Assembly (NCBI GenBank): GCA_947066955.1
Contig: CAMTAF010000004.1
Location: forward strand, 484 to 64,483
From: an uncultured Hungatella sp.
Lineage (GTDB): Bacteria > Bacillota > Clostridia > Lachnospirales > Lachnospiraceae
DNA length: 64,000 nt
Direction: 5' to 3'
Shown: piece by piece, positions 9,947-25,211 of the stretch
Position numbering within the stretch: position 1 is the first letter of the stretch
Layout of the letters: each line of letters opens with the position of its first letter
The notes under the pieces: model-generated
What the model was told of the DNA's origin: nothing
Database searches by the model: none
What the model saw: the letters and a program-made list of their open reading frames with translations, nothing else
Position numbers and translations under genes: made by a program

Positions 9947-11152
9947 TCAGTTGTGGACGGGGGTGATCAGATCAGGGACAAAGACGTCAAACTGGATATA
10001 CACAGCCTCCGCGTCGGGATGGCTGGGGTTTTCCTTTTTGTAGTCGCTGATATAGCAGTTGGTGCTGCCCAGATAGTGATACCTCTCGGCAATCATGGCC
10101 TTGTAGTGGTCCTCGGAGTAGCGGTAATTTATGTACCATGGGGTAGCCGGGCCTTGCCGAAAGGCGTATTCCCTGCTGCGCTGGTATCCGTGGACCGTGT
10201 TTTCCCCCCAGAAATCCGCCTTGATCATATCAATTATCCCGTTGATCTCATCCTGCTTCTCCGGGGCCTTGAGCCAGTCATGGGCATCCCAGTCCTCCAG
10301 GGCATCGATGTAGGCCCGGTAGCAGGCCAGGGCGGAAAGCTCAGCGTCATATTCCAGGGGAGCCGCCCCTGCCTCTGCCCGGTACTTGTTGATGTTATCC
10401 AGCTCAACCTGCTGCATATGAGTCAGCTTAGTTGTCAGCTGCTTCTTCTCGCTGCCAGTGGTAACGATCCCTTTCTGGGTCTTTTGGTTCATGGCATAGT
10501 AGAAGTAGTAGCACTCGTAGTTATCCCCAAAAGCCTTCCGGACTTTGGCATCACAGTTCTTCTGATAGGCGGCCACATTGAACCCCCGGCAGCCCTGGCG
10601 TCCCTCATGGATGCCCACTGTCTGGAAATGCCTAAGGAGCAGGGCCTTGTCCTTGTGGTAAAGGTAGGCCAGGCCGGGAAAAGTCTCGATATAATAGTCG
10701 CCGTCAAAGAGGAGATCCCAGTCCACTTCCTTGACATAGGCGTCGTACATCTCCCCATAGTCCCAGGTGACATCGTAGGGATTCTCCCCCTGGTCCACGT
10801 CCACGACACAGGCGTGGTTGTAGATCTCCACTCTGGCTTGGAGACCCACAAGCCGGGCGATGGCCTGGATGCCGGGACCTACCTGGAGCCTCTCCTCCGC
10901 CTTGGGCTTAGAGGCGGCAGATGAGGACTTGGAGGCGGCCGGGGATGTTTTCCCTTCCTGGAAGAATCCGCGGTTCTCCTGGGCGGCCTTTTGCTGCTCC
11001 TGAATCTTTTTTATCAACTCCTTGGCAATGTCGTGGCAGGATGCGCCGGAGGATGGGACCTCCGCCGGGCTTTGGGCCGGGGCGCATCCGCAGAACCCTG
11101 CCGCCAAAAGGACTGCCAGCGCCACAGCCAGCAGTTTTGTTTTCTTTCTCAT
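9947..11152 (-). CDS. Lipoprotein with FD..YY..P...HF...G..EGR module and divergent CAP-like C-terminal domain
   Basis: Lipobox AGFCGC; FDGDYYIETFPGLAYLYHKDKALLLRHFQTVGIHEGR; INKYRAEAGAAPL...GEN...SEDHYKAM. Confidence 0.65.
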   Translation of the reverse strand: MRKKTKLLAVALAVLLAAGFCGCAPAQSPAEVPSSGASCHDIAKELIKKIQEQQKAAQENRGFFQEGKTSPAASKSSSAASKPKAEERLQVGPGIQAIARLVGLQARVEIYNHACVVDVDQGENPYDVTWDYGEMYDAYVKEVDWDLLFDGDYYIETFPGLAYLYHKDKALLLRHFQTVGIHEGRQGCRGFNVAAYQKNCDAKVRKAFGDNYECYYFYYAMNQKTQKGIVTTGSEKKQLTTKLTHMQQVELDNINKYRAEAGAAPLEYDAELSALACYRAYIDALEDWDAHDWLKAPEKQDEINGIIDMIKADFWGENTVHGYQRSREYAFRQGPATPWYINYRYSEDHYKAMIAERYHYLGSTNCYISDYKKENPSHPDAEAVYIQFDVFVPDLITPVHN

Positions 11153-11332
11153 ATGTTTACATACTCACTACAGCTTTCCGCTTTAGTACCTTTCTCCGTT
11201 CAATCTCTTTTTCCGCTTCTTTTCTAACACCAGTCGGTTCTTTCTGCTTATCTGCTTTTATTATAAGCAGTACCGCAAAAGATGTAAAGCCCTCTCTGCA
11301 CTTCGTTTAGGCGGGTTTCTGACAATCGGCGC

Positions 11333-11361
11333 TTGCCGCCGCGCAAGGGCCTTGGTATAAT
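11333..11361 (+). promoter_or_regulatory. sigmaA-type promoter of the HPr-like gene
   Basis: TTGCCG-17 nt-TATAAT; perfect 12-bp inverted repeat at 11397-11427 downstream. Confidence 0.6.
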
Positions 11362-11461
11362 AGAGCTAAAGGCACGCTTTTTGTGCCGTCCATCCGATTA
11401 TAGGAAGCTGTTTTTGCTTCCTATAATAGAGTTTACTAGGAAAAGCTAGATGGAGGAAGGT

Positions 11462-11719
11462 ATGGTTATATTTACACATAAGATTTCCGATCCCAACGGA
11501 CTCCATGCCATCATTGCCGCCCGTCTTGCCAGATTTTGCCGGGAGTGTACCTGCTGCGTGCATGTGGCCTGCGGGAGCGCGGCCGTGGATGGCAGACAGA
11601 TGATGGGATTGATGAAGCTGAGAGCAAAGAAGGGGGAGGTTTTGGAGTTCAGGGTAGAGGGAAACGGTGAGGAAGAAGCGGCAAAAGAGCTCAAAGTATT
11701 GGCAGAGGAACTTTTATAG
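11462..11719 (+). CDS. HPr family phosphocarrier paralogue (atypical)
   Basis: PNGLHA with His at position 15 from ATG 11462; MGLMKLRAKKGE; FRVEGNGEEEA. Confidence 0.85.
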   Translation: MVIFTHKISDPNGLHAIIAARLARFCRECTCCVHVACGSAAVDGRQMMGLMKLRAKKGEVLEFRVEGNGEEEAAKELKVLAEELL

Positions 11720-11736
11720 ATGGGGAAGATTCTCCT

Positions 11737-11755
11737 TTTCCTAATAGTTAGGAAT
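11737..11755. promoter_or_regulatory. Palindrome TTTCC-N9-GGAAT, candidate PRD-activator site
   Basis: 33 nt upstream of a TATGAT -10; same motif and spacing recur at 13823. Confidence 0.55.
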
Positions 11756-11844
11756 CCGATTTCTCCGCGGCCCAGGGTGATTTTAAGTTATGATGGAATC
11801 ACGGATTACATAGAGAGAGGACGCAAGTGACAGTAGGAGGGATC

Positions 11845-13776
11845 ATGTTGAACGACAGACAGGAAAGGCTCCTTGAGTTGCTGATGGAAAGGCAGGACTG
11901 GATGACCAGCCGCCAGCTGGCTGGGCTTTTGAACGTGACGGACAGGACGATCCGCTCTGACGTGGACACGGTGAATAAGGAACCGGGCCCCATAGGGATC
12001 GAGTCCAGCGTCCGCAGGGGATACAGGGCCGTAAAGAGGCAGGAAAAGGGCGAGGCAGCCGTGGAAAAAGGCGGCAGGGGCCATGGGGGAACCGATATCC
12101 CTCAGACGCCGGGGGCCAGGTGTATCTATATTATCCAGCGGCTTCTGTTTGAGAACAGAGAACTGAACCTGACGGAGCTTCAGAGCCAGATCTATGTGAG
12201 CGGCTATTCGATTCAGAATGACTTAAAACGGATCCGGAAAATGATCGAGCCCTACGGGGGCTTAAAGCTGGCGCGGAATCTGGAATGTGTTTCTCTTCAG
12301 GGAGATGAGCATGTAAAACGGAAGTTCTATCGGGATCTTCTGGTGGCAGAGGTTCAGGAGAATTTCCTCAATCTCAACAGGCTGGCGCATCTGTACAAGC
12401 ATTTTGATCTTATTGAGGTAAAGGACATCTTCGTGAAGGTGCTGGATGAGTATGATTACTCGATCCATGAATCCATGTTTCCCATGCTTATCGTCCATGC
12501 TGGGACGTGCATTGAACGGATTCTTTCCTATCACTATGTCTGTCCTGAGGAGATCCGGCCGGGTCTGAAAGAAACCATTGAGTACCAGATTGCCGACACC
12601 TTCTTTGAGCGGATCGCCGGCCGGCTCCACATCCAGGTGAAAGAGGGGGAGGTGGAAATGTTTGCCCTTGTGATTATGGGGCGGCGCGCCTCCAACTATG
12701 CCAGCGACCATATCAAACTGGGAGATAAGTGGCTCAACACCCGGCGTCTGGTGGACAATTCCCTGATCCGTCTCATGGACGTGTTCGGAGTGGATTACCG
12801 GGGGGATGAGGATCTGGCGGCAGGGCTTAAGATGCATATTCACAGCCTTATTGAGAGAGCCAGGAACCAGGTGGTGCTGGAGGATATTTTTCTGGAGGAG
12901 ATCAAGGAAAATTACCCTCTGGTTTTTGAGATGGGGGTATGCATCACCGGGTATCTGGAGGGGGAGCTGGGGATTCCCATCGCGGACATGGAAAGCGGCT
13001 TTCTGGCCCTCCACCTGGGGGCAGCCAGCGAGAGGCTGAACTCTGTGAGAAAATACAGGGCCATGATGATCATGCCCTACAGCCAGACCTTTTTGGACAT
13101 GTGTGAAAAGCGGATTATGGAGATGTTCCGGGAGAGGATCCAGATCGTCAGGCGGTGCAGTTACTTTGAGGAGAAGGAAGTGAACCAGGCGGCTCCGGAC
13201 CTGATTCTGACCACCACCCCCATTGACCACAGGCTTAATATCCTCACAGTGCCTGTCAGCGTGTTTGTGGATTCGGAGACAGAGGCCAGGATTCTGGAGG
13301 CGTTAAATAAACTGGATAAAAACAGATTCCGCCTGGAATTTGCCTCCCATATCGGACATCTCATGCGCAGGGAGCATTATCACGGGGGCCTGGTGTGTCA
13401 GACACCGGAGGAGGTTATCGGGATTCTGTGCCAGGGGCTTTTGGAGGAAGGGATCGTAGGGGAGGGATTTCAGGATTCTGTTCTGGAGAGAGAGCGGATG
13501 AGCCCCACCTCCTTTGCCAACGCCCTGGCGGTTCCTCATGCCTTCCAGGCCTACGCTTCCAGGTCTACCATCGCCGTAGCCAAGCTGTCCCAGCCTGTAA
13601 AATGGGGCGGATTTGAAGTGCGCCTGGTGATGCTGTTTGCCATTAACGACAGCGACCGGCGGATGATCAAGATCTTTTTCGATTGGGTGTCCAACCTCAT
13701 CGGAAACCCCAGGCAGCTGGAGAGGCTGGCGGAAGAATGTTCTTATGAAGAATTTGTAGAGAGAGTTATGGAGTAG
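11845..13776 (+). CDS. LicR/BglG-type PRD transcriptional activator (HTH-Mga-PRD-PRD-EIIB-EIIA)
   Basis: LNVTDRTIRSD HTH, PRD histidines (LKMHI, LALHL), EIIA LAVPH; the EIIB-like segment lacks the usual Cys. Confidence 0.88.
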   Translation: MLNDRQERLLELLMERQDWMTSRQLAGLLNVTDRTIRSDVDTVNKEPGPIGIESSVRRGYRAVKRQEKGEAAVEKGGRGHGGTDIPQTPGARCIYIIQRLLFENRELNLTELQSQIYVSGYSIQNDLKRIRKMIEPYGGLKLARNLECVSLQGDEHVKRKFYRDLLVAEVQENFLNLNRLAHLYKHFDLIEVKDIFVKVLDEYDYSIHESMFPMLIVHAGTCIERILSYHYVCPEEIRPGLKETIEYQIADTFFERIAGRLHIQVKEGEVEMFALVIMGRRASNYASDHIKLGDKWLNTRRLVDNSLIRLMDVFGVDYRGDEDLAAGLKMHIHSLIERARNQVVLEDIFLEEIKENYPLVFEMGVCITGYLEGELGIPIADMESGFLALHLGAASERLNSVRKYRAMMIMPYSQTFLDMCEKRIMEMFRERIQIVRRCSYFEEKEVNQAAPDLILTTTPIDHRLNILTVPVSVFVDSETEARILEALNKLDKNRFRLEFASHIGHLMRREHYHGGLVCQTPEEVIGILCQGLLEEGIVGEGFQDSVLERERMSPTSFANALAVPHAFQAYASRSTIAVAKLSQPVKWGGFEVRLVMLFAINDSDRRMIKIFFDWVSNLIGNPRQLERLAEECSYEEFVERVME

Positions 13777-13799
13777 GGTCCGGAAATCCGGGCCCTTTT
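13776..13799 (+). terminator. Intrinsic terminator after the regulator
   Basis: GGGTCCGGA-AA-TCCGGGCCC-TTTT. Confidence 0.65.
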
Positions 13800-13822
13800 C
13801 CGTTATGATCCCCAACCATTTA

Positions 13823-13841
13823 TTTCCTGTCAGCTAGGAAA
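13823..13841. promoter_or_regulatory. Palindrome TTTCC-N9-GGAAA, candidate PRD-activator site
   Basis: 32 nt upstream of TATAAT (13874) with no good -35. Confidence 0.55.
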
Positions 13842-13909
13842 CGTCTTTACCGCGCAAAGAAATGATTTCGGGATATAATAAGGGCAGAAAGAAAATGAAA
13901 GGAGGGGAA

Positions 13910-14254
13910 ATGGTGGAAGGATTAGAGATGATATGCTTTCAGATTATTTCCAATGTGGGGACAGCCCGGTCCAACTATATTGAGGCTATCCACAGAGCCA
14001 AGGACAGAGACTTTGAAGGAGCGAAGCAGTGTCTGGAGGCAGGGCAGGCAGAGTTTTTGAAAGGCCATGACGCTCATTTTGAACTGCTTCAGAGAGAGGC
14101 CAAGGGAACGCCTGTGGGCGGTTCGCTGATTCTCATTCACGCGGAGGACCAGCTCATGAGCGCGGAGGGCTTTAAGATCATCGCCGAGGAGCTGATTGCC
14201 AGCTACAGGCAGATCCAGGCCCTGGAGAAAAGGTTGGAAGAGTCAGGAAAATAG
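13910..14254 (+). CDS. PTS Lac/Cel-family EIIA
   Basis: GTARSNYIEA, AH..LLQ.EA, ILIHAEDQLM. Confidence 0.92.
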   Translation: MVEGLEMICFQIISNVGTARSNYIEAIHRAKDRDFEGAKQCLEAGQAEFLKGHDAHFELLQREAKGTPVGGSLILIHAEDQLMSAEGFKIIAEELIASYRQIQALEKRLEESGK

Positions 14255-14284
14255 GAGAAGAAAAATAGGAGAAGGAGAATATTT

Positions 14285-14611
14285 ATGAAAAGAGTATATT
14301 TGTTCTGCAGCGCGGGGATGTCAACCAGTATGCTGGCCAGCAAGATGCAGGGGGTGGCCCAGGACCATGGGCTCCCCATTGAGGTGGAAGCGTTTTCCGA
14401 CGGAAAGATCGGGCAGATCATTGAGGAACGCCACCCGGACGTGATTCTCTTAGGGCCTCAGGTGAAGTTCCGGTATCAGGAGATCGTCAGCCAGTACGGC
14501 TCCACAGGGATTCCCATCGCGGTCATCGACCAGTCGGCCTACGGCATGATGGATGGGGAGAAGGTGCTGAAAATGGCGGTAAAAATGATGAAAGAAGCAA
14601 AAAAGTCATAA
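14285..14611 (+). CDS. PTS Lac/Cel-family EIIB
   Basis: LFCSAGMSTS phospho-Cys loop, ILLGPQV, YGMMDG. Confidence 0.93.
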   Translation: MKRVYLFCSAGMSTSMLASKMQGVAQDHGLPIEVEAFSDGKIGQIIEERHPDVILLGPQVKFRYQEIVSQYGSTGIPIAVIDQSAYGMMDGEKVLKMAVKMMKEAKKS

Positions 14612-14635
14612 GAGCGGAGAGAAAGGGGGTTTACC

Positions 14636-15967
14636 ATGTTACAAAAATTAGAAAAATTCTTTATGCCTCTGGCTGAGAGAATCGGAAGGAACAAATACCT
14701 GATCGCCATCCGTGACGGGTTTCTTTTGTCCATGCCGCTGCTGATTGTGGGTTCTTTTTTCCTGCTGATCGCGAACTTCCCTATACCGGGGTGGACCCAG
14801 TTCTGGGGAAGGTTTTTCGGGGACAACTGGGCGGCTTATTTTTCAAAGCCCACAGATGCCACCTTCTCCATTATGGCGATCCTGGCTGTGATCGGAATCG
14901 GCTACTCCTTTGCGGAGCAGATGAAGGTGGATAAGCTGTTCGGGGCAGCCATCTCCCTGGTAAGCTGGTTCCTGATCATGCCCTATGAGATTCTTTTCGG
15001 GGACAGCGTGGTTGCGGGGATTCCCCTGAACTGGGTAGGTTCCAAAGGGATCTTTGTGGGAATCATCTGCGCCTTCGCGGCAGTCCATATTTACTCATGG
15101 GTGGATAAAAAGGGCTGGGTTATCAAGATGCCCGACGGGGTGCCGCCTACGGTTGAGAAATCCTTCGCGGCCCTGATTCCGGCAGGAGTGTCCCTTCTGG
15201 TGTTCTTTTTAATCAATGTGGTGTTTGCCATGACGCCATTTGGGAATGCCTTTAACTTTGTGTTCGTGATTTTGCAGACTCCTCTGCTGAAGCTGGGCAA
15301 TACCTTGCCTGCCATGGTTATCGCCTATATTTTCCTCCACTTTTTCTGGTTTTTCGGGATCAACGGCGGTTCGGTAGTTGGAGCCGTGTTCAACCCTATT
15401 CTCCAGACACTGTCGGCGGAGAACCTGGCGGCGCTCCAGGCCGGCCAGCCCATACCGAACATTATTTCCCAGCAGTTCCAGGATCTGTTCGCCACCTTCG
15501 GCGGAGCCGGGTCTACCCTATCGCTTCTCATCGCCATGCTGCTGTTCTGCCGTTCCAGGCGAGTGAAGGAGCTGGGCAAGCTGGCTTTAGTGCCGGGAAT
15601 TTTCGGGATCAACGAGCCCATTATTTTCGGCCTGCCCATTTTGCTGAACCCCCTTATGCTGGTGCCCTTTATGCTGGTGCCTACCATCAACATCGTGATC
15701 TCTTACTTCTGCATGAGCATCGGGCTGGTGCCCCTGTGCACGGGTATTGCCATACCCTGGACTATGCCGGTAATTGTGTCCGGCTTCCTGGCCACAGGGT
15801 GGCAGGGGTCTGTGCTTCAGGCGCTGCTGCTGGTGCTGGGAGTGTTTATCTACATGCCGTTTATCAAAATGATGGACAAACAGTATCTGGCCGACGAGAC
15901 AAAGGCAGTGGAGACCAGCGACGATGACGACATTTCCCTGGATGATTTGTCTTTTGATGATCTGTAA
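14636..15967 (+). CDS. PTS Lac/Cel-family EIIC
   Basis: AIRDGF, MPDGVPPTV, GGAGSTL, FGINEPIIFGLP, PWTMP. Confidence 0.93.
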   Translation: MLQKLEKFFMPLAERIGRNKYLIAIRDGFLLSMPLLIVGSFFLLIANFPIPGWTQFWGRFFGDNWAAYFSKPTDATFSIMAILAVIGIGYSFAEQMKVDKLFGAAISLVSWFLIMPYEILFGDSVVAGIPLNWVGSKGIFVGIICAFAAVHIYSWVDKKGWVIKMPDGVPPTVEKSFAALIPAGVSLLVFFLINVVFAMTPFGNAFNFVFVILQTPLLKLGNTLPAMVIAYIFLHFFWFFGINGGSVVGAVFNPILQTLSAENLAALQAGQPIPNIISQQFQDLFATFGGAGSTLSLLIAMLLFCRSRRVKELGKLALVPGIFGINEPIIFGLPILLNPLMLVPFMLVPTINIVISYFCMSIGLVPLCTGIAIPWTMPVIVSGFLATGWQGSVLQALLLVLGVFIYMPFIKMMDKQYLADETKAVETSDDDDISLDDLSFDDL

Positions 15968-15986
15968 TTGTTTGGAGGATAACAAG

Positions 15987-16511
15987 ATGAAAATTGTGAT
16001 GATATTTGACCAGATTCAGTCAGGGCTTGGGACAAAAGACGACACCATGGTTCCCTTAACTGGCAAAAAAGAGGCTGTGGGACCCGCGGTGATGATGCAG
16101 CCTTTTTTAAAGGAAATCGACGGCCGGGTAGCGGCCTGCCTATGCTGCGGCAACGGCACTTACATGGAGAATCCCGACGAGGTCAGCAGAAAGCTGTGCG
16201 CCATGATAAGGAAACTGCAGCCGGACGTGGTGATCTGCGGCCCTGCCTTCAACTACGCGGATTACGGGGACATGTGCGCCCGGGTGGCAGCGGATATCAA
16301 CGCTACAACCGACAGCCGGGCCTTTGCCGCCATGTCCCAGGAAAACGAACAGGTGATCTCCAGGTACAAGGACCAGGTGATGATCGTCAAGACCCCCAAA
16401 AAGGGCGGTCTGGGGCTCAATGACTCTTTAAAGAACATGTGCCGGGTGGCAAAAGCCATGGCAGAGAACAGCAGCGAGCTGGAAAAATTAAAATCCGAGG
16501 TGTGTTTTTAG
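15987..16511 (+). CDS. GrdB-related protein (N-terminal part of the glycine/betaine reductase selenoprotein B family, no Sec)
   Basis: DQIQSGLG, LCCGNGTY, CGPAFNYADYG resembling GrdB GPAFNAGRYG; 174 aa. Confidence 0.65.
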   Translation: MKIVMIFDQIQSGLGTKDDTMVPLTGKKEAVGPAVMMQPFLKEIDGRVAACLCCGNGTYMENPDEVSRKLCAMIRKLQPDVVICGPAFNYADYGDMCARVAADINATTDSRAFAAMSQENEQVISRYKDQVMIVKTPKKGGLGLNDSLKNMCRVAKAMAENSSELEKLKSEVCF

Positions 16512-16556
16512 GAGGAAGGCAAACAGGAGGAAGGCAAACGCGCAGCGGTTTTAGGA
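16510..16556 (+). repeat. Dispersed structured repeat, 5' module with 15-bp tandem duplication
   Basis: AGGAGGAAGGCAAAC twice, then GCGCAGCGGTTTTAGGA; overlaps the upstream stop and abuts the downstream SD. Confidence 0.8.
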
Positions 16557-16570
16557 AGGAGGAAATGTAT

Positions 16571-17524
16571 ATGTGGGGAATGATTGCGACCTGGAGGATG
16601 GCTCTGGAGGGTGTGGGCAAAGGCGCCGAGATGCTGAGACAGGGCGGCGACGCGGGGGACGCTGTGGAGAGGGCGGTCCGTGAGGTGGAGGATTTTCCGT
16701 ATTATAAGTCTGTGGGCTACGGCGGACTGCCCAACGAGGATATGGAAGTGGAGCTGGATGCGGCTTTCATGGACGGAGATACCCTGGATATCGGCGCCGT
16801 GGCGGCTATAAAAGATTACGCCAACCCGGTATCCATCGCCCGGCGTCTCAGCGGGGAACCGGTAAACAGCGTTCTGGTAGGCGAAGGCGCGGAGCGGTTT
16901 GCCCACAAGGAGGGCTTTGAGAGAAAAAATATGCTCACTGACCGGGCAAAGGCTTTTTACAGGAAACGAAAAAAGGAAGACGAGCAGGAGCTAAAGCCTT
17001 ATAAAGGCCATGATACTGTGGGCATGGTGTGTCTGGACCAGAAAGGGAAGATGACCGCAGCCACCTCCACCAGCGGCCTGTTTATGAAAAAGAAGGGACG
17101 GGTGGGGGATTCTCCCATTGCCGGCTCCGGATTCTACGCAGACAGCAAGGTGGGCGGCGCAAGTGCTACCGGGCTGGGAGAGGATCTGATGAAGGGATGT
17201 ATTTCCTATGAGATCGTCCGTCTGATGAAGGAGGGGCTCCATCCCCAGGAAGCCTGTGAGCGCGCCGTCCTCTCTCTTGACAGGGAGCTTAAGGAGCGCC
17301 GGGGCAAGGCGGGGGACCTGTCCCTTATCGCCATGAACAACAAGGGAGAGTGGGGAGCTGCTACCAATATTCAGGGATTCTCCTTTGTGGTCGCCGCGGA
17401 GGGCGCAGAGCCCAAGGTATACTTAGCGACTCTCGGGGAGGATGGCCGCTGTACCTTCCAGGAAGCCTCCAGGGAGTGGATGGAGGATTACATGAGAACC
17501 AGGATGGCTCCTGTGGAGGAGTAG
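16571..17524 (+). CDS. N(4)-(beta-N-acetylglucosaminyl)-L-asparaginase (glycosylasparaginase, Ntn hydrolase)
   Basis: SVGYGGLPN, ELDAAFMDG, autocleavage HD/TVG, TSTSG, GRVGDSP, ATGLGE. Confidence 0.85.
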   Translation: MWGMIATWRMALEGVGKGAEMLRQGGDAGDAVERAVREVEDFPYYKSVGYGGLPNEDMEVELDAAFMDGDTLDIGAVAAIKDYANPVSIARRLSGEPVNSVLVGEGAERFAHKEGFERKNMLTDRAKAFYRKRKKEDEQELKPYKGHDTVGMVCLDQKGKMTAATSTSGLFMKKKGRVGDSPIAGSGFYADSKVGGASATGLGEDLMKGCISYEIVRLMKEGLHPQEACERAVLSLDRELKERRGKAGDLSLIAMNNKGEWGAATNIQGFSFVVAAEGAEPKVYLATLGEDGRCTFQEASREWMEDYMRTRMAPVEE

Positions 17525-17576
17525 AATCCCCATAATATGAGAAACCGGATTTCGGAAAGGAGAGGAGAGGACGGGA

Positions 17577-18677
17577 TTGGAAGATAAGATCATAGAGATG
17601 GCGGAGAGCCTAAAGGACCGGATGCTCCAGGGGATCCTGGAAATGGTCAGGATCGACAGCGTAGAATCGGAACCAAAGCCGGACGCCCCTTTCGGGCCAG
17701 GGGTGAAGAGAGCTCTCGCCAAGGCCCTGGAATTGGGAGAGGAACTGGGCTTCCACTGTGTGAACCTGGACAACTACATCGGATACGCGGAATACGGACA
17801 GGGTGAGGACTATGTCTGCGCCATGGGGCATGTGGACGTGGTGCCTGTGGGGGACGGCTGGAGACAGCCGCCCTTCAGCGGGCACATAGAAGACGGGGTC
17901 ATCTACAGCCGGGGAATCCTGGACAACAAAGGCCCTTTGCTGTCCTGCCTCTATGGGCTCTATGCCTTGAAGGAACTGGGGATCAGACCCAAACACAGAA
18001 TTCGTATTATTTTCGGATGTGACGAGGAATCCGGGTTTGAGGATCTTCACTATTATCTGAAGAAAGAGAAGCCGCCTCTGTGGGGATTTACGCCGGACTG
18101 CAAATTTCCCGTGGTCTACGGAGAGCGGGGCAGAGCTGTAATCCGGGTGAACGGAGAAGAACTGGAGCCTTTTTTTGCATTTGTCACCCAATATTTTATC
18201 GGAGCCAAAAATACGGGGGACCGCCTGGGAATCGATATTTCCCACAAAGAATACGGAACCATGGAGATGAGGGGATATAAACTTGGGGTGGAAGGGGGAA
18301 AACCTTATTTTGAAGCATCCTTAAGTTACCCGGCAGGCTGCGGCATTGAGGAGATCTTAAGGAGGATCCGGGGGAAAGCCGGCGGCCTTTCCGTAGAGCT
18401 GCGGCAAAATTACAATCCAGTGGTCTTTGACAAGGAAAGCCCTTTGGTTTTGGCTTTAACGGAGTGCTATGAAAAGGTAACGGGATTGGACGGGACCCCT
18501 GTAACCACCACAGGGGGAACCTACGCCAAGGCTATGCCCAACATAGTCCCATTCGGCCCCAGTTTTCCGGGACAGAAGGGAATCGGACACAACCCTAACG
18601 AGTGGATGACCGTAGAAGACCTGATGAAGAACGCCAAAATCTATGCACTAGCCCTATACCGCATAGGCAATCTTTGA
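17577..18677 (+). CDS. M20 Sapep/PepV-type dipeptidase
   Basis: GHVDVVP, RGILDNKGP, DEESG, GGTYAK, HNPNE; TTG start. Confidence 0.88.
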   Translation: MEDKIIEMAESLKDRMLQGILEMVRIDSVESEPKPDAPFGPGVKRALAKALELGEELGFHCVNLDNYIGYAEYGQGEDYVCAMGHVDVVPVGDGWRQPPFSGHIEDGVIYSRGILDNKGPLLSCLYGLYALKELGIRPKHRIRIIFGCDEESGFEDLHYYLKKEKPPLWGFTPDCKFPVVYGERGRAVIRVNGEELEPFFAFVTQYFIGAKNTGDRLGIDISHKEYGTMEMRGYKLGVEGGKPYFEASLSYPAGCGIEEILRRIRGKAGGLSVELRQNYNPVVFDKESPLVLALTECYEKVTGLDGTPVTTTGGTYAKAMPNIVPFGPSFPGQKGIGHNPNEWMTVEDLMKNAKIYALALYRIGNL

Positions 18678-18713
18678 GGAAGAAGGCAAACGCGCAGCGG
18701 CGCGTGCCGCTAC
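18677..18713 (+). repeat. Dispersed structured repeat, internally deleted copy
   Basis: AGGAAGAAGGCAAACGCGCAGCGGCGCGTGCCGCTAC joins the head of the 5' module to the tail of the 3' module. Confidence 0.75.
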
Positions 18714-18731
18714 TAGGAGGAGGAAATTGTT

Positions 18732-19481
18732 ATGAACCCTATTGTGGAAATTTGCTGCGGAAGTTATTATGACGCGAAGCAAGCGGCCCTGGGAGGGGCC
18801 AAACGCATTGAATTAAACGGAGCCCTGATGTTGGGAGGGCTGACTCCTACGGAGTCATCGATCCGCATGGTTAAGGAGAACCTGAACCTGGAAGTGATCG
18901 CCATGGTGCGGCCAAGAGGCGCCGGTTTCTGTTACCTTGAGGAGGAGTTTCAGGTGATGGAGCAGGAATGCCGGGAGGTTCTTAAGGCCGGGGCCGACGG
19001 AGCCGCCTTTGGGTGCCTTCTGGAGAACGGCTCCCTGGATCTGGAGAAGAACAAGCGTCTTGTGGACATCGCCAAGGCCATGGGACGCCAGGCTGTGTTC
19101 CATCGGGCCTTTGACTGCACGGACGACCCCTTCCGAACCATGGAACAGCTGATCGGCCTGGGAGTGGACCGGGTGCTGACCAGCGGATTGAAGCCCACTG
19201 CCATGGAAGGACGGGATAGGATCCAGCAGCTGCAGGCCATGTTCGGGGACAGGATCCAGATTCTGGCAGGCAGCGGCATTAACGGAGGAAATGTCAGAAA
19301 CCTGGTGGAGTATACGGGAGTGAATCAGGTTCACAGCTCCTGCAAGGCATGGCGCCAGGACCCTACCACTGTAAGAAACGGGGTTTCCTACAGTATGGCG
19401 GCAGGGGAACTGGCCATGTGCTATGATGTGGTATCGGCGGAGTTGGTAGCGGAACTGATAAAAAAGGGAAATGATTTATGA
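18732..19481 (+). CDS. cutC: CutC family TIM-barrel protein
   Basis: EICCGS, RIELN..L..GGLTP, MVRPRGAGF, FHRAFD, RVLTSG, AGSGI, VHSS. Confidence 0.92.
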   Translation: MNPIVEICCGSYYDAKQAALGGAKRIELNGALMLGGLTPTESSIRMVKENLNLEVIAMVRPRGAGFCYLEEEFQVMEQECREVLKAGADGAAFGCLLENGSLDLEKNKRLVDIAKAMGRQAVFHRAFDCTDDPFRTMEQLIGLGVDRVLTSGLKPTAMEGRDRIQQLQAMFGDRIQILAGSGINGGNVRNLVEYTGVNQVHSSCKAWRQDPTTVRNGVSYSMAAGELAMCYDVVSAELVAELIKKGNDL

Positions 19482-20326
19482 AAAACAGGTATTTGATCAT
19501 GACGGCGGCAGTGACATTTTCCGCCCTTTTACAGGCATTTGCCATGAATATCTTTTTAGAGCCGGTGCAGCTTCTGCCCAGCGGATTTACGGGCATAGCC
19601 GCGTTGCTGTCAAGGATGGCCGCGGCAGCGGGTTTTCGCTTTACCACATCGTTCGGCATGGTGCTTCTCAATATTCCCGTGGCCCTGTTCTGCTATAGGC
19701 ATATCGGGAAAAGGTTTGTTCTGTTTTCCATGGCTCAGGTTGTTCTGGCCAGTGTATTTTTGAGGATTATAAAAAGCGAACCGCTGTTTGACGACGTGCT
19801 TTTAAATATTTGTTTCGGCGGTTTCCTCTATGGGCTTGCAGTATCTGTGGCCCTGAAAGGCAACGCATCCACAGCAGGCATGGATTTTATCGCCCTGTAT
19901 GTCTCCAACCGGATGGGCAAATCCATCTGGCAGTACGTGTTTGTGTTCAACTGCTGCCTTCTGTGCGTTTTCGGAGCCTTGTTTGGCTGGGAGCACGCAG
20001 GGTATTCCATCCTGTATCAGTTTATCTCCACCAGGACCATAGACAGCTTCTATCACCGCTTTAAACGGGTAACTCTCCAGATCACAACCCAGAAGCCTGA
20101 TGAGGTGGTGAAAGAGTATGTAGGAACGTGCCGCCACGGGATCTCCGTGGTGGACGGACACGGGGGATACAGCGGAAAGAAAATGAGCCTGCTGCATACG
20201 GTGGTTTCCACCTATGAGGTTCACGATATCCTTCTGCGCCTGAAGGCCATAGACCCTGCGGTGATTGTCAATGTGCTGCCCACGGAGTCTTTTGTAGGGC
20301 CTTTTTACCAGAAGCCTTTGGATTAA
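19478..20326 (+). CDS. YitT family membrane protein
   Basis: SGFTGIA, LLNIP, ASTAGMDF, C-terminal DUF2179-like GGYSG...IDPAVIVN. Confidence 0.85.
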   Translation: MKNRYLIMTAAVTFSALLQAFAMNIFLEPVQLLPSGFTGIAALLSRMAAAAGFRFTTSFGMVLLNIPVALFCYRHIGKRFVLFSMAQVVLASVFLRIIKSEPLFDDVLLNICFGGFLYGLAVSVALKGNASTAGMDFIALYVSNRMGKSIWQYVFVFNCCLLCVFGALFGWEHAGYSILYQFISTRTIDSFYHRFKRVTLQITTQKPDEVVKEYVGTCRHGISVVDGHGGYSGKKMSLLHTVVSTYEVHDILLRLKAIDPAVIVNVLPTESFVGPFYQKPLD

Positions 20327-21462
20327 GATTTTATCCTCATCTGCCCACGCTTAACCCCCTGGTACACTTCCGCCAGCCGGGGATAAGCGTACTCAAAAAA
20401 TCCTTTATAGGCATCACAGAAATAGTTCTTCCCAGCGCTGTCTTTTGTAACCGGTTCCCGGTTCCTCCGACATCCGCCCCGGCACAGATTGAGCCACCGG
20501 CACTCCCGGCAGTCCTCGTGGATTCTCTCGGACCAACGGATAAATCCCAGCTCCTCCCGTTTTTTATCCATCTCCTCAAAGCTGTTCTCCCGGATATTTC
20601 CCAGGAGCCACTGGTCCAGGGCATAGAAATCGCAGGGGTAAGTGCTTCCGTCGGCCTCAATGACCCACTGCTTCCCGCATATTCCCCTCATATTGCAGCT
20701 CTCCGGCATGCGGCCATCCAGAATCAGCATGAGATTGTCAAAATACCGGTTGTACACCGCCTTGCCCGCCTTCATGTCCAGATACCAGGCGTCGAACAGG
20801 CTTTTTAAAAATGCCTCGTAATGTTTAGGGGTCAGGGAAAATTCCTGGCCTCCCGGTGTCTCCCCCAGGGGATCCAGGCATTCAATATACTGCTGATACT
20901 CCATCTTGTTCTTCTTAAAAAAGTTGTAGATCTTCTGGCCGCTTCTGGCGGAGGCGGCTGTCACCACCGTTAATATATTGTAATCCACATGGTATTTTTC
21001 CAGGAGACGAATCCCGGACATAATTCGATTGTAAGTGCCCTTCCCTGTCCCATCCTTCCGATATTTGTCATGGATCTCTTTGGGTCCATCCAAAGAGACC
21101 CCTACCAGGTAGCGGTTTTTCGCCCAGAACCGGGCCCACTCCTCATCGATCCTCAGGCCATTGGTCTGAATAGCGTACTGAAACCGGATCTTTTTAGGGT
21201 TTTCCCGGCCAGCCATGTAGTCAGCCAGATCCTCATAGAAATCAAGGCCCGCCAGGGTGGGTTCTCCCCCCTGAAAGGCCACTGTACAATAGCCGTCCCC
21301 GTATTCCAGGGTCCGGTCCATAATCCCTCTCATAGTGTCCTTAGACATGATGCCATGGGAGGCCACACTGCGGTTCTCCTGCTCATCGGCATAAAAACAA
21401 TAGCGGCACCTCATGTTGCAGTTCCCTGACGCCGGCTTTATTAATATATTTAAAGGTGGCAT
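20323..21462 (-). CDS. Anaerobic sulfatase maturase (radical SAM/SPASM)
   Basis: IKPASGNCNMRCRYC, FQGGEPTL, QTNG, SLDGP, DGSTYPCDFY, CRGGCRR. Confidence 0.93.
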   Translation of the reverse strand: MPPLNILIKPASGNCNMRCRYCFYADEQENRSVASHGIMSKDTMRGIMDRTLEYGDGYCTVAFQGGEPTLAGLDFYEDLADYMAGRENPKKIRFQYAIQTNGLRIDEEWARFWAKNRYLVGVSLDGPKEIHDKYRKDGTGKGTYNRIMSGIRLLEKYHVDYNILTVVTAASARSGQKIYNFFKKNKMEYQQYIECLDPLGETPGGQEFSLTPKHYEAFLKSLFDAWYLDMKAGKAVYNRYFDNLMLILDGRMPESCNMRGICGKQWVIEADGSTYPCDFYALDQWLLGNIRENSFEEMDKKREELGFIRWSERIHEDCRECRWLNLCRGGCRRNREPVTKDSAGKNYFCDAYKGFFEYAYPRLAEVYQGVKRGQMRIKS

Positions 21463-21476
21463 AATTTTCCCCTCCT

Positions 21477-21593
21477 TCCTAAAAACGCTGCGCGTTTGCC
21501 TTCCTCCTTGCGGTAGCGGCACGCGACGCTTCGCATCACCTGCCAATACGTCGGAAGGCATCCTAAGAAACGCTGCGCGTTTGCCTTCCTCCT
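21477..21593 (-). repeat. Dispersed structured repeat, one full unit plus a partial second unit
   Basis: Minus strand AGGAGGAAGGCAAACGCGCAGCGTTTCTTAGGATGCCTTCCGACGTATTGGCAGGTGATGCGAAGCGTCGCGTGCCGCTACCGCA then AGGAGGAAGGCAAACGCGCAGCGTTTTTAGG. Confidence 0.9.
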
Positions 21594-22386
21594 ACATAAA
21601 CTGAATGATATTGTATACGCAGATCAGCATAATAATCCCCATGAGCCCGATAAACAGCTTGTTCACCATGGTTCCGTCCATGCGTCTGTTCACGGTCCTT
21701 CCTGCCGCCCCTCCCAGGATGCCGCAGGCGACCATGAGGACCAGAAGCCCTATGGTGAACTCCGGCACGGTTCTTGTCACCAGGGTGTTTACCAGGCTGG
21801 CAATCTGGGAAAACAGGATAATGTACAGAGAATTCTGGGCCGCTGTCTTGGTATCCATGGAGAAGAAGAAAAACAGGACCACCAGGTTGATGGGGCCACC
21901 GCCGATGCCCAGGAAGGAGGACAGGATCCCCAGCACCAGGCCGATGGCTATGCACGCAGGCACGTTGGTGACATGATGTGTCCTGATCTTATCCTTCTTC
22001 AGCGTGTAAATAAGGGTTCCAAATGTAATGACCAGCAGGCAGGAGGCCTGGACCGCGCCCACCTGATCCCTGTCCGCTGCCAGGCTGGAAATGTACTGAA
22101 ACATCATTTTCCCCGCCACACCTCCAAGGGCGGCTCCAATGGCCAGGGGAGTTCCCGTCTTCATATCCACAAGAGAAGAACCTCCAAGCTTTGCCTTTAC
22201 CACTGAGTAGCAGGACATGGACAGCACGGTGCAGCCGGAGAGAAAGCTGATGCTGGCCACGCTCAGGACCCCGAAGGTGTCCAGGATAGGCTTGATCAGC
22301 ACTCCGCCGCCGATGCCGCATATGGCTCCTGCCACAGAGGCCAGAAAACTTACCATGGCGAAAATAACGTACAGATACAGATTCAT
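21592..22386 (-). CDS. TauE/SafE (TSUP) family sulfite/sulfate exporter
   Basis: GAICGIGGGVLIKP and SSFLGIGGGPINL duplicated motif; multi-TM. Confidence 0.88.
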   Translation of the reverse strand: MNLYLYVIFAMVSFLASVAGAICGIGGGVLIKPILDTFGVLSVASISFLSGCTVLSMSCYSVVKAKLGGSSLVDMKTGTPLAIGAALGGVAGKMMFQYISSLAADRDQVGAVQASCLLVITFGTLIYTLKKDKIRTHHVTNVPACIAIGLVLGILSSFLGIGGGPINLVVLFFFFSMDTKTAAQNSLYIILFSQIASLVNTLVTRTVPEFTIGLLVLMVACGILGGAAGRTVNRRMDGTMVNKLFIGLMGIIMLICVYNIIQFM

Positions 22387-22410
22387 TACTTTGTCTCCTT
22401 CCTTTGCCCT

Positions 22411-23892
22411 TTATCTAGGGTCTTTTCGATTGGGAACCGTGTCCCCGGTCTCCATGTAGAACCGCAGAAGCCGCATGGCCATGGCCTGGATCTGCTGCTG
22501 GTACTCCGGCTCCCCGATCCTGTTGTCAAGCTCCATGGGATCCTTTTCCAGATCATAGAACTCGTCCTGCTCATAGAGCCGTTTCACATACTTGTACTGC
22601 CCCATGCGGACCATGGCCGCCTTGGTGTGCTCCGGCCCCTCCAGGCACTGGGTGGACAGCCGGGGCCAGTAGGGAGACTGGGGACCGTGACCGCCTTCCA
22701 TAGCCTGAACCTCCCCGTGGATCCGTCCTCCTTCACAGAACACGGCCTCTTTATGAACCGGATTTCCCGCCACCGCGTCCAGGAGAGATTTGCCAAACTG
22801 GGTGTAATCCAGGGAAAATCCCGCCATATCCGCCCATGTAGCCGGAAGATCCAAAAGTTCCGCCAGCGCCTGGCTCTTCCCCGGCTTTACAGGGAACATG
22901 GAGGCGGGCTTCACCAGCAGGGGAACATTGGAAATAGGATCCTCAAAACAGTTCTGAACCTTCTCGGTGATCCCGTAATCCCCGGTGTAATCCCCGTGGT
23001 CGCTGAACACGAAGATGCTGGTGTCATCATAAAATCCGTGCTCCTTCAGCTTATCCTTCACCATCCCGAACTGGTGGTCAAACCGCTCCACCATGCCTAA
23101 ATATACGGCCCGCAGCTCATTGTACTGTTCCTCGCTCCAGCCTGTAAGATTCTGTTTGGAGCGGATGCCCCGAAGCATGGAGGGTTTTCCCTCAAGCTTC
23201 TCCACATCGATCCTTCTGGGGGGCAGGCCCTCCCGGGGGATACTGCTAAACCAGGGCTCCTCGCACCCGTAGGGCGGGTGGGGGAAGCTTAAGGTTATGT
23301 ATAAGAAAAACGGCCTGCCGTCATTTTTCTCCTTCTTCCTGTCCAGATAATCCAGGGCGCTTTTCACGCAGTTCCAGTCAAATGTGGATCCTGCCTGCTC
23401 CTTGTCCATCTTTCCTATATAGAAAGAATAACGGTCATCCTGGTCCATGCATTCCGGCCTCTCACAGGAAACCTTAGGGCCCGGAGCAAACTTAAGTCCC
23501 GCGTCATCCCGATGATTTTCAAAATCGCCGCCACTGTAAAACTCGTCACAATACTCCGTCTTTGCCCTGTCGGCGGGGATCACATCGTTGCGTCCGATCC
23601 AGATCACCTCGTACCCCTGATCCTTCATGGTCCGCAGGATATTGGGCTCCTGGGGCTCCTGAAGAAAATGCATGGTTCTGTGCCCGGTTGTGTGAGGATA
23701 CCTTCCTGTGAGAAAACTGCACCTTGACGGAACGCACACCGGATTCTGGCAGTAAGCGTTGGCAAATGAAACCCCATCCTCCAAAAGAGAATCCAGGTTG
23801 GGTGTCTTTGACGCCGGATTTCCCATATGGGACAGGGAATCGCAGCGCATCTGGTCCGCCACAAACAACAATATATTCGGTCTCTTTTCCAT
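22411..23892 (-). CDS. Cys-type (formylglycine) sulfatase
   Basis: PNILLFVADQ, TPNLD, CVPSRCSFLTG (CxPxR), FPHPPY, SDHGD, YDLEKDP. Confidence 0.93.
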   Translation of the reverse strand: MEKRPNILLFVADQMRCDSLSHMGNPASKTPNLDSLLEDGVSFANAYCQNPVCVPSRCSFLTGRYPHTTGHRTMHFLQEPQEPNILRTMKDQGYEVIWIGRNDVIPADRAKTEYCDEFYSGGDFENHRDDAGLKFAPGPKVSCERPECMDQDDRYSFYIGKMDKEQAGSTFDWNCVKSALDYLDRKKEKNDGRPFFLYITLSFPHPPYGCEEPWFSSIPREGLPPRRIDVEKLEGKPSMLRGIRSKQNLTGWSEEQYNELRAVYLGMVERFDHQFGMVKDKLKEHGFYDDTSIFVFSDHGDYTGDYGITEKVQNCFEDPISNVPLLVKPASMFPVKPGKSQALAELLDLPATWADMAGFSLDYTQFGKSLLDAVAGNPVHKEAVFCEGGRIHGEVQAMEGGHGPQSPYWPRLSTQCLEGPEHTKAAMVRMGQYKYVKRLYEQDEFYDLEKDPMELDNRIGEPEYQQQIQAMAMRLLRFYMETGDTVPNRKDPR

Positions 23893-23909
23893 ATCTGTCT
23901 CCTTTTCTC

Positions 23910-25211
23910 TTAATCCGCCAGTTCCTGCTCTTCTTTTAAGGCCTGGGTGTCAAGCACCTTAAAGAACGGAAAATAACAGCATATCTGAATCAGCACCAGA
24001 ACCACCTGCCACACAGCCAGCTTCCAGCCGCCGCAGAGCATCCCGGACAAAACCACAGGCGTGCCCAGAGGAATCTCCATACCGTTCATAACCGGAATCA
24101 CCCCCAGGAGGGTCATCACATAAGACAGAGTAAAAGTAATCACAGGCGTCAAAAGGAGGGGGATCAGCATAATGGTGTTCAGCACCATGGGAAGTCCAAA
24201 GGTAATGGGTTCATTGATGCCGCAGAGTCCTGACGGAAGAGCCAGCTTGCCCAGTGCCTTGTACCTCTGGCTTTTGGCCATAAAACACATGACAATACAC
24301 AGCCCTAAAGTTCCGCCGGCGCCTCCCAAAGAGGCATACCCGCTCCACGCGGACTTCACGATCATATTGGGAAGCTCTGCCCCCGCGCCGTAGGCGGTTA
24401 AGTTCTCCATAGCCAGAGGCATGTACAGCATGTTGATAAAAGGCATAACAATCATTCCGCCGTGAAGTCCGAAGAACCACATGATGCTGCACATGAGAAT
24501 CAGGACGATCATGGTAAACGGGCTTGCTCCCAGGGCGGAGAGAGGAGCCTTTAACAAGGTGTAGATACAGGTGTTGATGTCTCCAAAGGAAGTCAGAGAA
24601 AATCCAAAACGAATCAGAGCAAATATGAGCAAAATCATGAAGGATGGCAAAATTCCCTGGAACGAAATGGAAATCTGGGGCGGAACACTGTCCGGCATCC
24701 GGATGACCAGCTTTTTGTCAATAAAAAACTTATAAAGCACTGGTATGGCAAGTCCGAAAATCATGGCCGTAAACAGGCCGGCTGCCCCCAGATAGGAGGT
24801 TGACAAAGCCGCTGCCACTGTCACCGTGATCTCATCTTTTGTTCCCGTTACTCCCAATGGAATCATAACAAGAAATACCGCCAATGTCAACAGACCGATA
24901 CTGTTTGCCTGCTTGTCCATATCAATGCTGCCCGCGGTTGCGCGGGAAATGCTGTATACCGCATAGAGGGCCAGCATGTCTGTGGTGATCTTGGGGACAA
25001 ATCCAAAGATCTCTTTTAAATGGACCGCAGTGATCATGGACTGGTAAAAGCTGATGTTTAAATTAGCCAGAAGAGTAAACAGCGCCCCCACGATAACAAT
25101 GGGAAGACAGGCGGAAAAACCGCTGCTGATGGACTTGAGGTATCGGTTCTCGGACAGCTTCTGAGCCAGAGGAAGCAGCGCGTTTCCTAATTTTTCTGTA
25201 AATTTCTCCAT
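23910..25211 (-). CDS. PTS Lac/Cel-family EIIC (no cognate EIIA/EIIB in the operon)
   Basis: MPDSVPP, WFFGLHG, GGAGGTL, CGINEPITFGLP. Confidence 0.9.
   Translation of the reverse strand: MEKFTEKLGNALLPLAQKLSENRYLKSISSGFSACLPIVIVGALFTLLANLNISFYQSMITAVHLKEIFGFVPKITTDMLALYAVYSISRATAGSIDMDKQANSIGLLTLAVFLVMIPLGVTGTKDEITVTVAAALSTSYLGAAGLFTAMIFGLAIPVLYKFFIDKKLVIRMPDSVPPQISISFQGILPSFMILLIFALIRFGFSLTSFGDINTCIYTLLKAPLSALGASPFTMIVLILMCSIMWFFGLHGGMIVMPFINMLYMPLAMENLTAYGAGAELPNMIVKSAWSGYASLGGAGGTLGLCIVMCFMAKSQRYKALGKLALPSGLCGINEPITFGLPMVLNTIMLIPLLLTPVITFTLSYVMTLLGVIPVMNGMEIPLGTPVVLSGMLCGGWKLAVWQVVLVLIQICCYFPFFKVLDTQALKEEQELAD

Follow-up and report, generated by a model that had tools for sequence, protein, structure and literature searches.

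The ten-gene cluster considered here lies in a stretch of 64,000 nucleotides (the window) from an uncultured Hungatella species (contig CAMTAF010000004.1). From its gene content, it is likely to be a catabolic operon resembling the ega locus of Enterococcus faecalis, which uses a phosphotransferase system (PTS) to capture N-acetylglucosamine linked in beta to asparagine (GlcNAc-Asn); short peptides carrying Asn(GlcNAc) would probably be used as well. GlcNAc-Asn is, of course, the last stub of every digested N-glycoprotein. The operon would therefore mark gut Firmicutes able to live on the remnants of host and dietary glycoproteins.

The case is built from the identities of the genes, the conservation of the cluster, the orthology of its glycosylasparaginase (GA) to a proven enzyme, and the pathway described in E. 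faecalis. From these we infer which substrate this organism uses, that it is phosphorylated at O6, and in what order the steps follow. PTS-dependent use of GlcNAc-L-Asn by E. faecalis through ega was published in 2023 (Combret et al., Res Microbiol 175:104169, PMID 37977353). Thus, by what citing papers say of the E. faecalis work, the core pathway is already known, and what is new here would be the conserved extra genes, above all the one for CutC.

The proposed route begins with a PTS of the lactose/cellobiose (Lac/Cel) type (EIIABC) that would take up GlcNAc-Asn and phosphorylate it at O6, with the HPr paralogue encoded next to it as phosphoryl donor and a PRD activator to induce it. This phosphorylation would make a sugar kinase unnecessary. 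An M20 peptidase would trim the neighbouring amino acid, giving an Asn whose alpha-amino and alpha-carboxyl groups are both free. The cytoplasmic GA, which is predicted to accept the 6-phosphate, would then cleave the amide to give Asp and 1-amino-GlcNAc-6-phosphate, and this would pass to GlcNAc-6-phosphate (GlcNAc-6P) and ammonia. NagA and NagB would feed GlcNAc-6P into glycolysis; both are encoded elsewhere in the genome, and GlcNAc-6P is therefore usable. Here, CutC would be a sugar-phosphate-binding barrel acting on an intermediate related to GlcNAc-6P, with YitT as its putative membrane partner.

The ten genes are intact, co-directional and tightly spaced, and occupy positions 11450-20326 of the forward strand:

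11450..11719, forward: HPr paralogue (PF00381 63.6 bits, TIGR01003 50.8 bits)
11827..13776, forward: PRD-containing transcriptional activator (PF00874 81.5 bits, PF00359 73.6 bits, PF08279 47.9 bits)
13910..14254, forward: PTS EIIA, lactose/cellobiose family (PF02255 101.6 bits)
14285..14611, forward: PTS EIIB, lactose/cellobiose family (PF02302 62.2 bits, TIGR00853 90.4 bits)
14636..15967, forward: PTS EIIC, lactose/cellobiose family (TIGR00359 456 bits, cut-off 434)
15987..16511, forward: GrdB-like protein (GrdBL), 174 amino acids (NF041545 GrdB_like_no_Se 249 bits, cut-off 175)
16571..17524, forward: GA, cytoplasmic N-terminal nucleophile (Ntn) hydrolase of the Asparaginase_2 family (PF01112 234 bits)
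17577..18677, forward: M20 metallopeptidase, PepV/Sapep-like, with a shortened lid (TIGR01887 354 bits, cut-off 208)
18732..19481, forward: CutC-family TIM-barrel protein (PF03932 193.5 bits)
19478..20326, forward: YitT-family membrane protein with DUF2179 (PF02588 168 bits, PF10035 40 bits)

A sequence-only reading of this DNA had drawn the eight genes from EIIA to YitT as one co-directional series at 13910-20326, and the profile scores bear it out.

The glycosylasparaginase and the conserved cluster

The Ntn hydrolase is, by sequence, of glycosylasparaginase type (EC 3.5.1.26) and belongs to the GA branch of PF01112. This assignment follows from its scores, its residues and its closest proven relative. 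It scores 206 bits against the glycosylasparaginase structures from Elizabethkingia/Flavobacterium (PDB 1p4k/9gaa), and 137 bits or less against structures of isoaspartyl peptidase/asparaginases. The HDT autoprocessing site (147-149), R177, D180, T200, G201 and the sugar-stacking W8 are all present; in alignment, the enzyme retains the nucleophile Thr and the equivalents of Thr170, Arg180, Asp183, Thr203, Gly204 and Trp11 (Flavobacterium numbering). Among 78 orthologues, 75-78 keep these catalytic residues unchanged. Its homologues in Lactobacillaceae share 44-60% identity; the protein P0330 of Lacticaseibacillus chiayiensis is 56% identical over the full length (E 1e-131) and is the orthologue there of AsnA2. 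Both P0330 and L164, one of the Lactobacillaceae homologues, sit in a cluster of the order GH29 fucosidase-MFS-GntR-M20-GA-ROK, which is the alf-2 arrangement.

For AsnA2, encoded in alf-2, activity as an N4-(beta-GlcNAc)-L-asparaginase has been proven by experiment (PMC6960285). Its activity is 20.9 umol/mg/min on GlcNAc-Asn versus 0.26 on the O6-fucosylated 6'FN-Asn, or about 80-fold slower (PMC6960285). Because AsnA2 accepts this second substrate, substitution at O6, the position that a PTS would phosphorylate, is tolerated in the subfamily. The sequence-only reading had taken the enzyme for a glycosylasparaginase and had placed it in a PTS-linked route for N-glycan core remnants; the scores and retained residues argue for the first of these proposals, and the enzyme type together with its identity to the AsnA2 orthologue supports the second.

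Arg9 (12 in Flavobacterium numbering), the neighbour of the sugar-stacking Trp, was considered as a determinant of 6-phosphate binding and rejected. It is found in all PTS-linked GAs of Lactobacillaceae, and also in the MFS-linked GAs of the alf-2 type. It therefore marks the M20-linked subfamily, not the binding of phosphate.

The second line of evidence is the cluster itself. A scan of one genome per species gave 80 related loci, whose GrdBL proteins are 61-92% identical to that of the window. They span at least four families, including representatives of Lachnospiraceae, Clostridium, Erysipelotrichales and Ligilactobacillus; the carriers are Hungatella, Enterocloster, Lacrimispora, many Clostridium species, Ligilactobacillus and, within Erysipelotrichales, Bulleidia, Longicatena, Coprobacillus and [Eubacterium] hominis. 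As far as contigs extend, the order IIB-IIC-GrdBL-GA-M20 holds in 80 of 80 loci, and for this reason the arrangement is far beyond chance. Gene order around the GrdBL homologues is shared with a Hungatella metagenome-assembled genome (MAG) and Clostridium sartagoforme, and around the CutC homologue with mouse-gut MAGs. GA itself is fixed in PTS operons across orders, in the company of two independent EIIC lineages.

Around this core, accessory genes were counted by clustering of open reading frames (ORFs). Of 73 related loci, 65 encode CutC; YitT is encoded in 46 loci and an RDD membrane protein in 24. Most of the 80 loci whose contig extends far enough have a homologue of the PRD regulator upstream (63 recovered by the clustering), and homologues of the HPr paralogue lie 5' of the regulator in a subset, mainly in the closest relatives (Hungatella/Enterocloster). 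Co-occurrence with the cluster elsewhere had been put forward as the check on CutC and the GrdB-like gene, and both do accompany it, CutC in the proportion just given and GrdBL in the 80 loci.

Eleven loci in Lactobacillaceae have a Lac/Cel EIIC adjoining GA and a full-length M20, and 10 of the 11 also encode GrdBL (36-50% identity). One of them, L160, has a GntR regulator upstream and a terminal CutC. These loci appear, from their gene content, to bridge the window version and the ega version of the cluster.

One contig stands apart taxonomically. L105 (contig CAVESC010000017.1, labelled Bacteroidaceae) carries a complete cluster of Firmicute type, its EIIC groups with that of Clostridium mediterraneense, and the GTDB phylum sample of its genome consists of Bacilli/Mollicute-like genomes. 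For these reasons, L105 looks like a wrong NCBI label or a mis-binned contig.

Alternative substrates and GH170

The sequence-only reading had remarked on the lack of a GH1 or GH4 glycosidase. This is true of the window locus, yet a glycosidase of another family, GH170 (MupG family, PF19200/PF05913), is encoded in 43 of the 80 related loci. Its place varies among four: 5' of the regulator, between GrdBL and GA, and 3' of either CutC or YitT. The window locus belongs to a Hungatella-like subgroup whose operon lacks GH170; the single copy in this genome lies on another contig (C49), beside a GH1.

GH170 brings up the possibility that the true substrates are not free GlcNAc-Asn, but larger remnants of the N-glycan core, chitobiosyl-Asn or glycopeptides. 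Here, the PTS would phosphorylate the non-reducing GlcNAc, GH170 would release GlcNAc-6P, M20 would trim the peptide, and GA would finish. The frequency and the varied placement of GH170 fit this proposal, as does the invariable presence of M20. In Lacticaseibacillus paracasei, a Cel-class PTS and the GH170 protein ChbE are required for the use of N,N'-diacetylchitobiose (Garcia-Telles et al. 2026, PMC12791066), and also for that of chitotriose (PMC12791066). Further, the C. sartagoforme locus has genes for a YdjC protein (a deacetylase of ChbG type) and a GH4 on its flanks. However, the operon here has no GH170, with the only copy in the genome elsewhere; E. faecalis uses GlcNAc-L-Asn through an ega locus that, as citing papers describe it, is without GH170; and the free inner GlcNAc would need a kinase, which the cluster does not encode. 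As a general account of the locus, larger remnants are thus rather unlikely. The L. paracasei findings do make GH170 in the relatives compatible with chitobiosyl-Asn or glycopeptides as extra substrates, and they weaken the link to peptidoglycan that the name MupG suggests.

That link deserves separate comment. If the locus recycled peptidoglycan, the PTS would import a disaccharide-peptide of N-acetylmuramic acid (MurNAc) and GlcNAc, GH170 would serve as the 6-phospho-N-acetylmuramidase, and M20 together with the Ntn hydrolase would break down stem peptides and bridges of beta-linked D-Asp/D-Asn. MupG, which alone among GH170 proteins has been characterised biochemically, is indeed a 6-phospho-N-acetylmuramidase (PMC12791066). 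In the [Eubacterium] hominis locus (L097, 10691-13835), a secreted M23/PcsB-like peptidoglycan hydrolase is inserted together with GH170 between GrdBL and GA, and in one MAG a Mur-ligase gene lies 3' of the cluster; both hint at peptidoglycan fragments. These neighbours are, however, single cases, neither a MurQ etherase nor a muramoyl-alanine amidase is a recurrent member of the 80 loci, and the window locus lacks GH170. Further, the GA shares 56% identity with the orthologue of an enzyme proven to hydrolyse GlcNAc-Asn, and its L-Asp-binding residues are retained. Peptidoglycan recycling is therefore very improbable.

Least likely of all is a salvage of damaged (beta-aspartyl) peptides by an isoaspartyl peptidase/asparaginase and an M20 dipeptidase, with the PTS serving another beta-glycoside: PF01112 does include isoaspartyl peptidases, and the NCBIfam beta-aspartyl-peptidase model gives 141 bits, but this is far under its cut-off of 567, the GA structures score higher (206 versus 137 bits), neither the HDT motif nor the sugar-stacking Trp varies, and, as noted, PTS operons of several orders, with EIICs of two independent lineages, have the enzyme as a fixed member.

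What, then, weighs against a GlcNAc-Asn operon? The activity of MupG and the two peptidoglycan-related neighbours do, as noted above. L. casei BL23 does not grow on free GlcNAc-Asn (PMC6960285), and specificity of uptake therefore matters. In the same species, pepV is dispensable on 6'FN-Asn (PMC6960285), which makes the role given here to M20 a guess. The comparison with ega was made by gene families as named in papers that cite the E. faecalis work, not by alignment, and the regulators differ, being a PRD/Mga-type activator in the window and, according to the same papers, a GntR protein (EgaR) in ega.

Accessory genes and operon boundaries

The EIIC has relatives that are informative. In a maximum-likelihood tree of 39 Lac/Cel EIICs, the window protein, its cluster orthologues and the GA-linked EIICs of Lactobacillaceae form one clade (support 100/99), to which none of the ten further EIIC paralogues in this genome belongs. 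The active-site Cys of the accompanying EIIB lies within LFCSAGMSTS.

GrdBL takes its name from protein B of the glycine/sarcosine/betaine reductase (GrdB), and by sequence it is not that protein. It matches only the N-terminal domain of GrdB (residues 1-160), with which it has the motifs DQIQxGxGG, CG[DN] and GPAFN in common; the selenocysteine-bearing C-terminal half is absent. Its gene ends in TAG and has no in-frame TGA, hence no selenocysteine, as the sequence-only reading had held. On TIGR01918 it reaches 58.7 bits, under the cut-off of 65.45. It is the sole NF041545/GRDB match in the genome (proteins of the NF041545 family have about 171 residues), and the gene list of the locus includes no other grd gene. 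The AlphaFold2 model (pLDDT 92) is a flavodoxin-like alpha/beta fold; a fold search with it gave no PDB match at E<1e-3, and only generic flavodoxin/CheY-like matches with TM-scores of 0.52 or less. A metal or redox site built from its Cys residues was considered and rejected, as only Cys54, in the CG[DN] motif, is kept across Lactobacillaceae, f77 and true GrdB sequences.

What GrdBL does follow is the transporter. Its gene is always among PTS genes. In the cluster loci it adjoins that for EIIC, and it does so too in 10 of the 11 PTS-linked loci of Lactobacillaceae. A homologue of 176 amino acids (34% identity) occurs in f77, another family of the phylum, in a PTS locus without GA. There, the operon (L037, G092:C1:1992000-2011000; also L038) runs IIA-GrdBL-IIB-IIC-169-aa protein-GH1, with genes for a GH2 beta-mannosidase and a divergently transcribed PRD regulator of sigma54/LevR type as neighbours. 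In OG1RF, a strain of E. faecalis, the species for which use of GlcNAc-Asn is published, the "putative oxidoreductase" gene of ega is a pseudogene (PMC11549559). This gene (egaD) would be the counterpart of GrdBL, judging from a product name that matches the name of the NCBIfam family. The tie to the EIIC clade, the GH1-containing PTS without GA and the OG1RF pseudogene together lead us to read GrdBL as an accessory of the PTS, not as an enzyme of the glycosylamine. Most likely, it assists the EIICs of this clade as a partner that is non-catalytic or auxiliary. It may thereby represent a new class of proteins accessory to the PTS.

The same sequence-only reading had let GrdBL and CutC act on the phospho-glycosylamine or the sugar it yields. 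For GrdBL, this lacks support for the reasons just given. For CutC it lacks support also, since CutC is found in plain nagA/nagB/nagE operons, in which no glycosylamine arises.

The M20 protein keeps all the metal ligands of its family (H85, D116, E150, E151, D174 and H338; invariant in 73 of 73), which equal His87, Asp119, Glu153/154, Asp177 and His439 of PepV. It does not have the full lid domain of PepV. Residues 193-339 of PepV, most of the lid, are reduced to about 50 amino acids, and Arg350 is replaced by Ser. In PepV, Arg350 reportedly binds the substrate carboxylate, and Asn217 and His269 are said to be residues of the lid. The protein gives 347 bits on the PepV equivalog model, below the cut-off of 435, and passes that of the Sapep subfamily (354 versus 208). 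Short M20 proteins (about 366-396 amino acids) are typical of the Clostridia-type clusters, and those of Lactobacillaceae are full length. A smaller lid would leave space for a side chain that bears a sugar.

CutC is conserved from bacteria to humans. The copper phenotype after which cutC of E. coli was named is due to MicL, a small RNA encoded inside the gene (PMC4102768), and this leaves the protein without an accepted function. The window protein scores 145 and 135 bits against the human and Shigella CutC structures (PDB 3iwp, 1twd), and 164 bits on the E. coli-type equivalog NF008603, under the cut-off of 311. A Foldseek search with its model (pLDDT 83) gives TM-scores of 0.78-0.85 to Shigella/human CutC and 0.73 to the shorter CutC of S. 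agalactiae. The next matches are TIM barrels that handle sugar phosphates: MJ1099 with phosphoribosyl pyrophosphate, hexulose-6-phosphate synthase, KGPDC, ribulose-phosphate epimerase, PdxS and PRAI.

The company that cutC keeps in genomes was surveyed in 401 genomes of its own phylum, 39 of them with CutC, and 35 CutC loci were inspected. In 11 of these, CutC adjoins genes for a ROK kinase, NagA, NagB or NagE; one is a nagA-nagB-nagE-cutC operon, and one has a GH29 fucosidase. In five (L201, L205, L220, L221, L202), from two other families and without GrdBL or M20, CutC is found at a compact cluster of the order PRD regulator-IIA-GA-IIC-CutC-IIB. The EIIC of this compact cluster is, in the EIIC tree, a lineage separate from the ega-like clade. 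CutC lies between IIC and IIB in four of them; in L202, which falls in both classes, cutC is on the other strand and outside the cluster, which abuts the genes nagB-nagA-cutC. In seven loci (L189, L190, L191, L216-L219; genomes G286, G168, G260, G338, G048, G201, G091), which come from two families of the phylum, CutC stands between selD and a glycine reductase operon (grdX-trxB-trxA-grdE-grdA-grdB), a second and independent adjacency of CutC to a gene of the GrdB family. The contexts of the other 13 differ from these.

The link to GlcNAc-6P metabolism is also seen in whole genomes, here with NagA defined by TIGR00221 and with relatedness ignored in the counts. In the phylum of the window, NagA is encoded in 37 of 38 genomes with CutC versus 154 of 362 without. 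A sample from a second phylum, which takes in TGA-recoded genomes of 0.8-1.3 Mb, gives 56/58 (one as a fragment) versus 25/91; pooled, the figures are 93/96 and 179/453. In six genomes of the second sample (G557, G556, G601, G591, G626, G672), CutC and NagA are encoded within about 3 kb.

Three TGA-recoded genomes of 0.8-0.9 Mb retain cutC directly beside nagA (G557:C1:839084-840812, G556:C1:796301-798125, G601:C1:270395-272107); G601 has a second, decayed cutC-nagA pair as well. The idea that CutC is a non-orthologous stand-in for NanE, the epimerase of N-acetylmannosamine 6-phosphate, was rejected on co-occurrence: NanE is found in 19 of 58 genomes with CutC versus 9 of 91 without, and in G616 the two genes are 2 kb apart.

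Thus, CutC would be an optional, separable module linked to GlcNAc-6P metabolism, one that the GlcNAc-Asn route should not require, since just 1 of the 11 Lactobacillaceae PTS-GA loci carries it and the overlapping CutC-YitT pair is found also without any PTS. Tentatively, the three accessory families can be joined in one picture, which is possible though short of probable: CutC as an enzyme of amino-sugar phosphates (GlcNAc-6P or a derivative, for example 1-amino-GlcNAc-6P), YitT as its membrane partner, and, separately, the GrdB N-domain as a dedicated auxiliary of the EIIC clade. Searches of the literature gave nothing relevant that links CutC with glycosylasparaginase or nag genes. What has been gained for CutC is a reproducible metabolic context, made of PTS-GA operons from two independent transporter lineages, of nagA/nagB/nagE/ROK neighbours, and of genomes with NagA. 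This makes a long-open question of function directly testable with a few sugar-phosphate substrates.

YitT has a second paralogue in this genome (G000:C55:17178-18026), 81% identical to the protein of the operon and encoded alone beside a small DUF523-like gene.

As to boundaries, the operon reaches further 5' than the 13910-20326 of the sequence-only reading and includes the HPr paralogue and the PRD regulator. The HPr paralogue retains His15 and has Gln in place of Ser46; it is probably a phosphocarrier dedicated to the locus. The activator is made of an HTH_11/Mga helix-turn-helix, two PRDs and an EIIA-Mtl domain. At the other end, the start of YitT overlaps the stop of CutC by 4 nucleotides (nt). 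A scan of 10800-20700 against Rfam gave zero matches, and a scan for consensus promoters and terminators gave counts not above those of shuffled sequence. Two features were placed in the spacers:

13775..13796, forward: terminator-like hairpin in the spacer between regulator and PTS genes (pattern match: 9 bp, 7 GC, T-rich tail)
16510..16560, forward: fragment of a palindromic repeat in the GrdBL-GA spacer (a genome-wide intergenic repeat)

The repeat, of about 85 nt, is present in about 185 copies per 4.2 Mb in this genome (G000), with the core GAAGGCAAACGCGCAGCG...GGATGCCTTCC...GGCAGGTGxCGC, and many copies lie directly 5' of start codons. Truncated copies occupy two spacers of the operon, GrdBL-GA (16510-16560) and M20-CutC (18677-18720), and this is why some proteins have odd N-terminal extensions in the raw ORF list. 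Two full copies stand in tandem at 21483-21600, between the genes for a sulfatase maturase and a TauE protein. These belong to a group convergent with the operon (20323-25274, reverse strand) that encodes an anaerobic sulfatase maturase, a TauE-like exporter, a sulfatase and a lone Lac/Cel EIIC.

Comparison with known systems

At the level of the enzyme, the reference is the GA of Elizabethkingia (Flavobacterium) meningoseptica (PDB 1p4k, 9gaa, 2gl9), with which the window enzyme has the Ntn fold, the HDT motif and the nucleophile Thr in common. The flavobacterial enzyme acts on unphosphorylated GlcNAc-Asn. In the window enzyme, its Phe13 is replaced by Met and its Asn12 by Arg.

The chb genes of L. 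paracasei (chbRCDE/chbBA) resemble the window locus in the transporter: both have a cellobiose-class PTS, whose substrate is (in the window, by prediction) a GlcNAc-containing fragment of the N-glycan core. They are alike also in a small accessory protein encoded directly after EIIC, ChbD (DUF3284) in one and GrdBL in the other; ChbD shortens the lag in L. paracasei (PMC12791066). DUF3284 is unrelated to GrdB, and GrdBL would be an analogue of ChbD by position. The substrate of chb is chitobiose, and chb has neither GA nor peptidase; conversely, the window locus is without the GH170 that more than half of its relatives share with chb.

The alf-2 cluster of L. casei/paracasei BL23 (alfHC, asdA, alfR2, pepV, asnA2, sugK; Becerra et al. 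2020, PMC6960285) had been cited in the sequence-only reading as a PTS/AsnA2/PepV cluster. This is wrong, as alf-2 has an MFS permease and a ROK kinase (PMC6960285). What it has in common with the window is a pepV-type M20 gene adjoining that for GA, and a glyco-amino acid of the N-glycan core as substrate (predicted for the window). Of its MFS permease (AlfH), GH29 fucosidase (AlfC) and ROK kinase (SugK), none is encoded in or next to the window locus; here, the PTS replaces permease and kinase. The M20 of alf-2 is full length (441-447 amino acids) and that of the window is short.

The closest known system is ega (for enterococcal glycosylasparaginase), here as described in citing papers. One promoter serves its GntR regulator and its dipeptidase (EgaP, the counterpart of M20); the locus further has EgaG, EIIB, EIIC and the pseudogene of a "putative oxidoreductase" (PMC11549559). 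Its EIIA is CelA1 (PMC11976118). With the window locus, ega shares GA, a Lac/Cel EIIB and EIIC, an M20-type dipeptidase and the "putative oxidoreductase" gene, and with these the logic of PTS uptake followed by cytoplasmic cleavage without a sugar kinase. The window locus, in contrast, has its own EIIA and an HPr paralogue where E. faecalis borrows CelA1, an intact GrdBL where OG1RF has a pseudogene, an M20 with a shortened lid, and, in addition, CutC and YitT.

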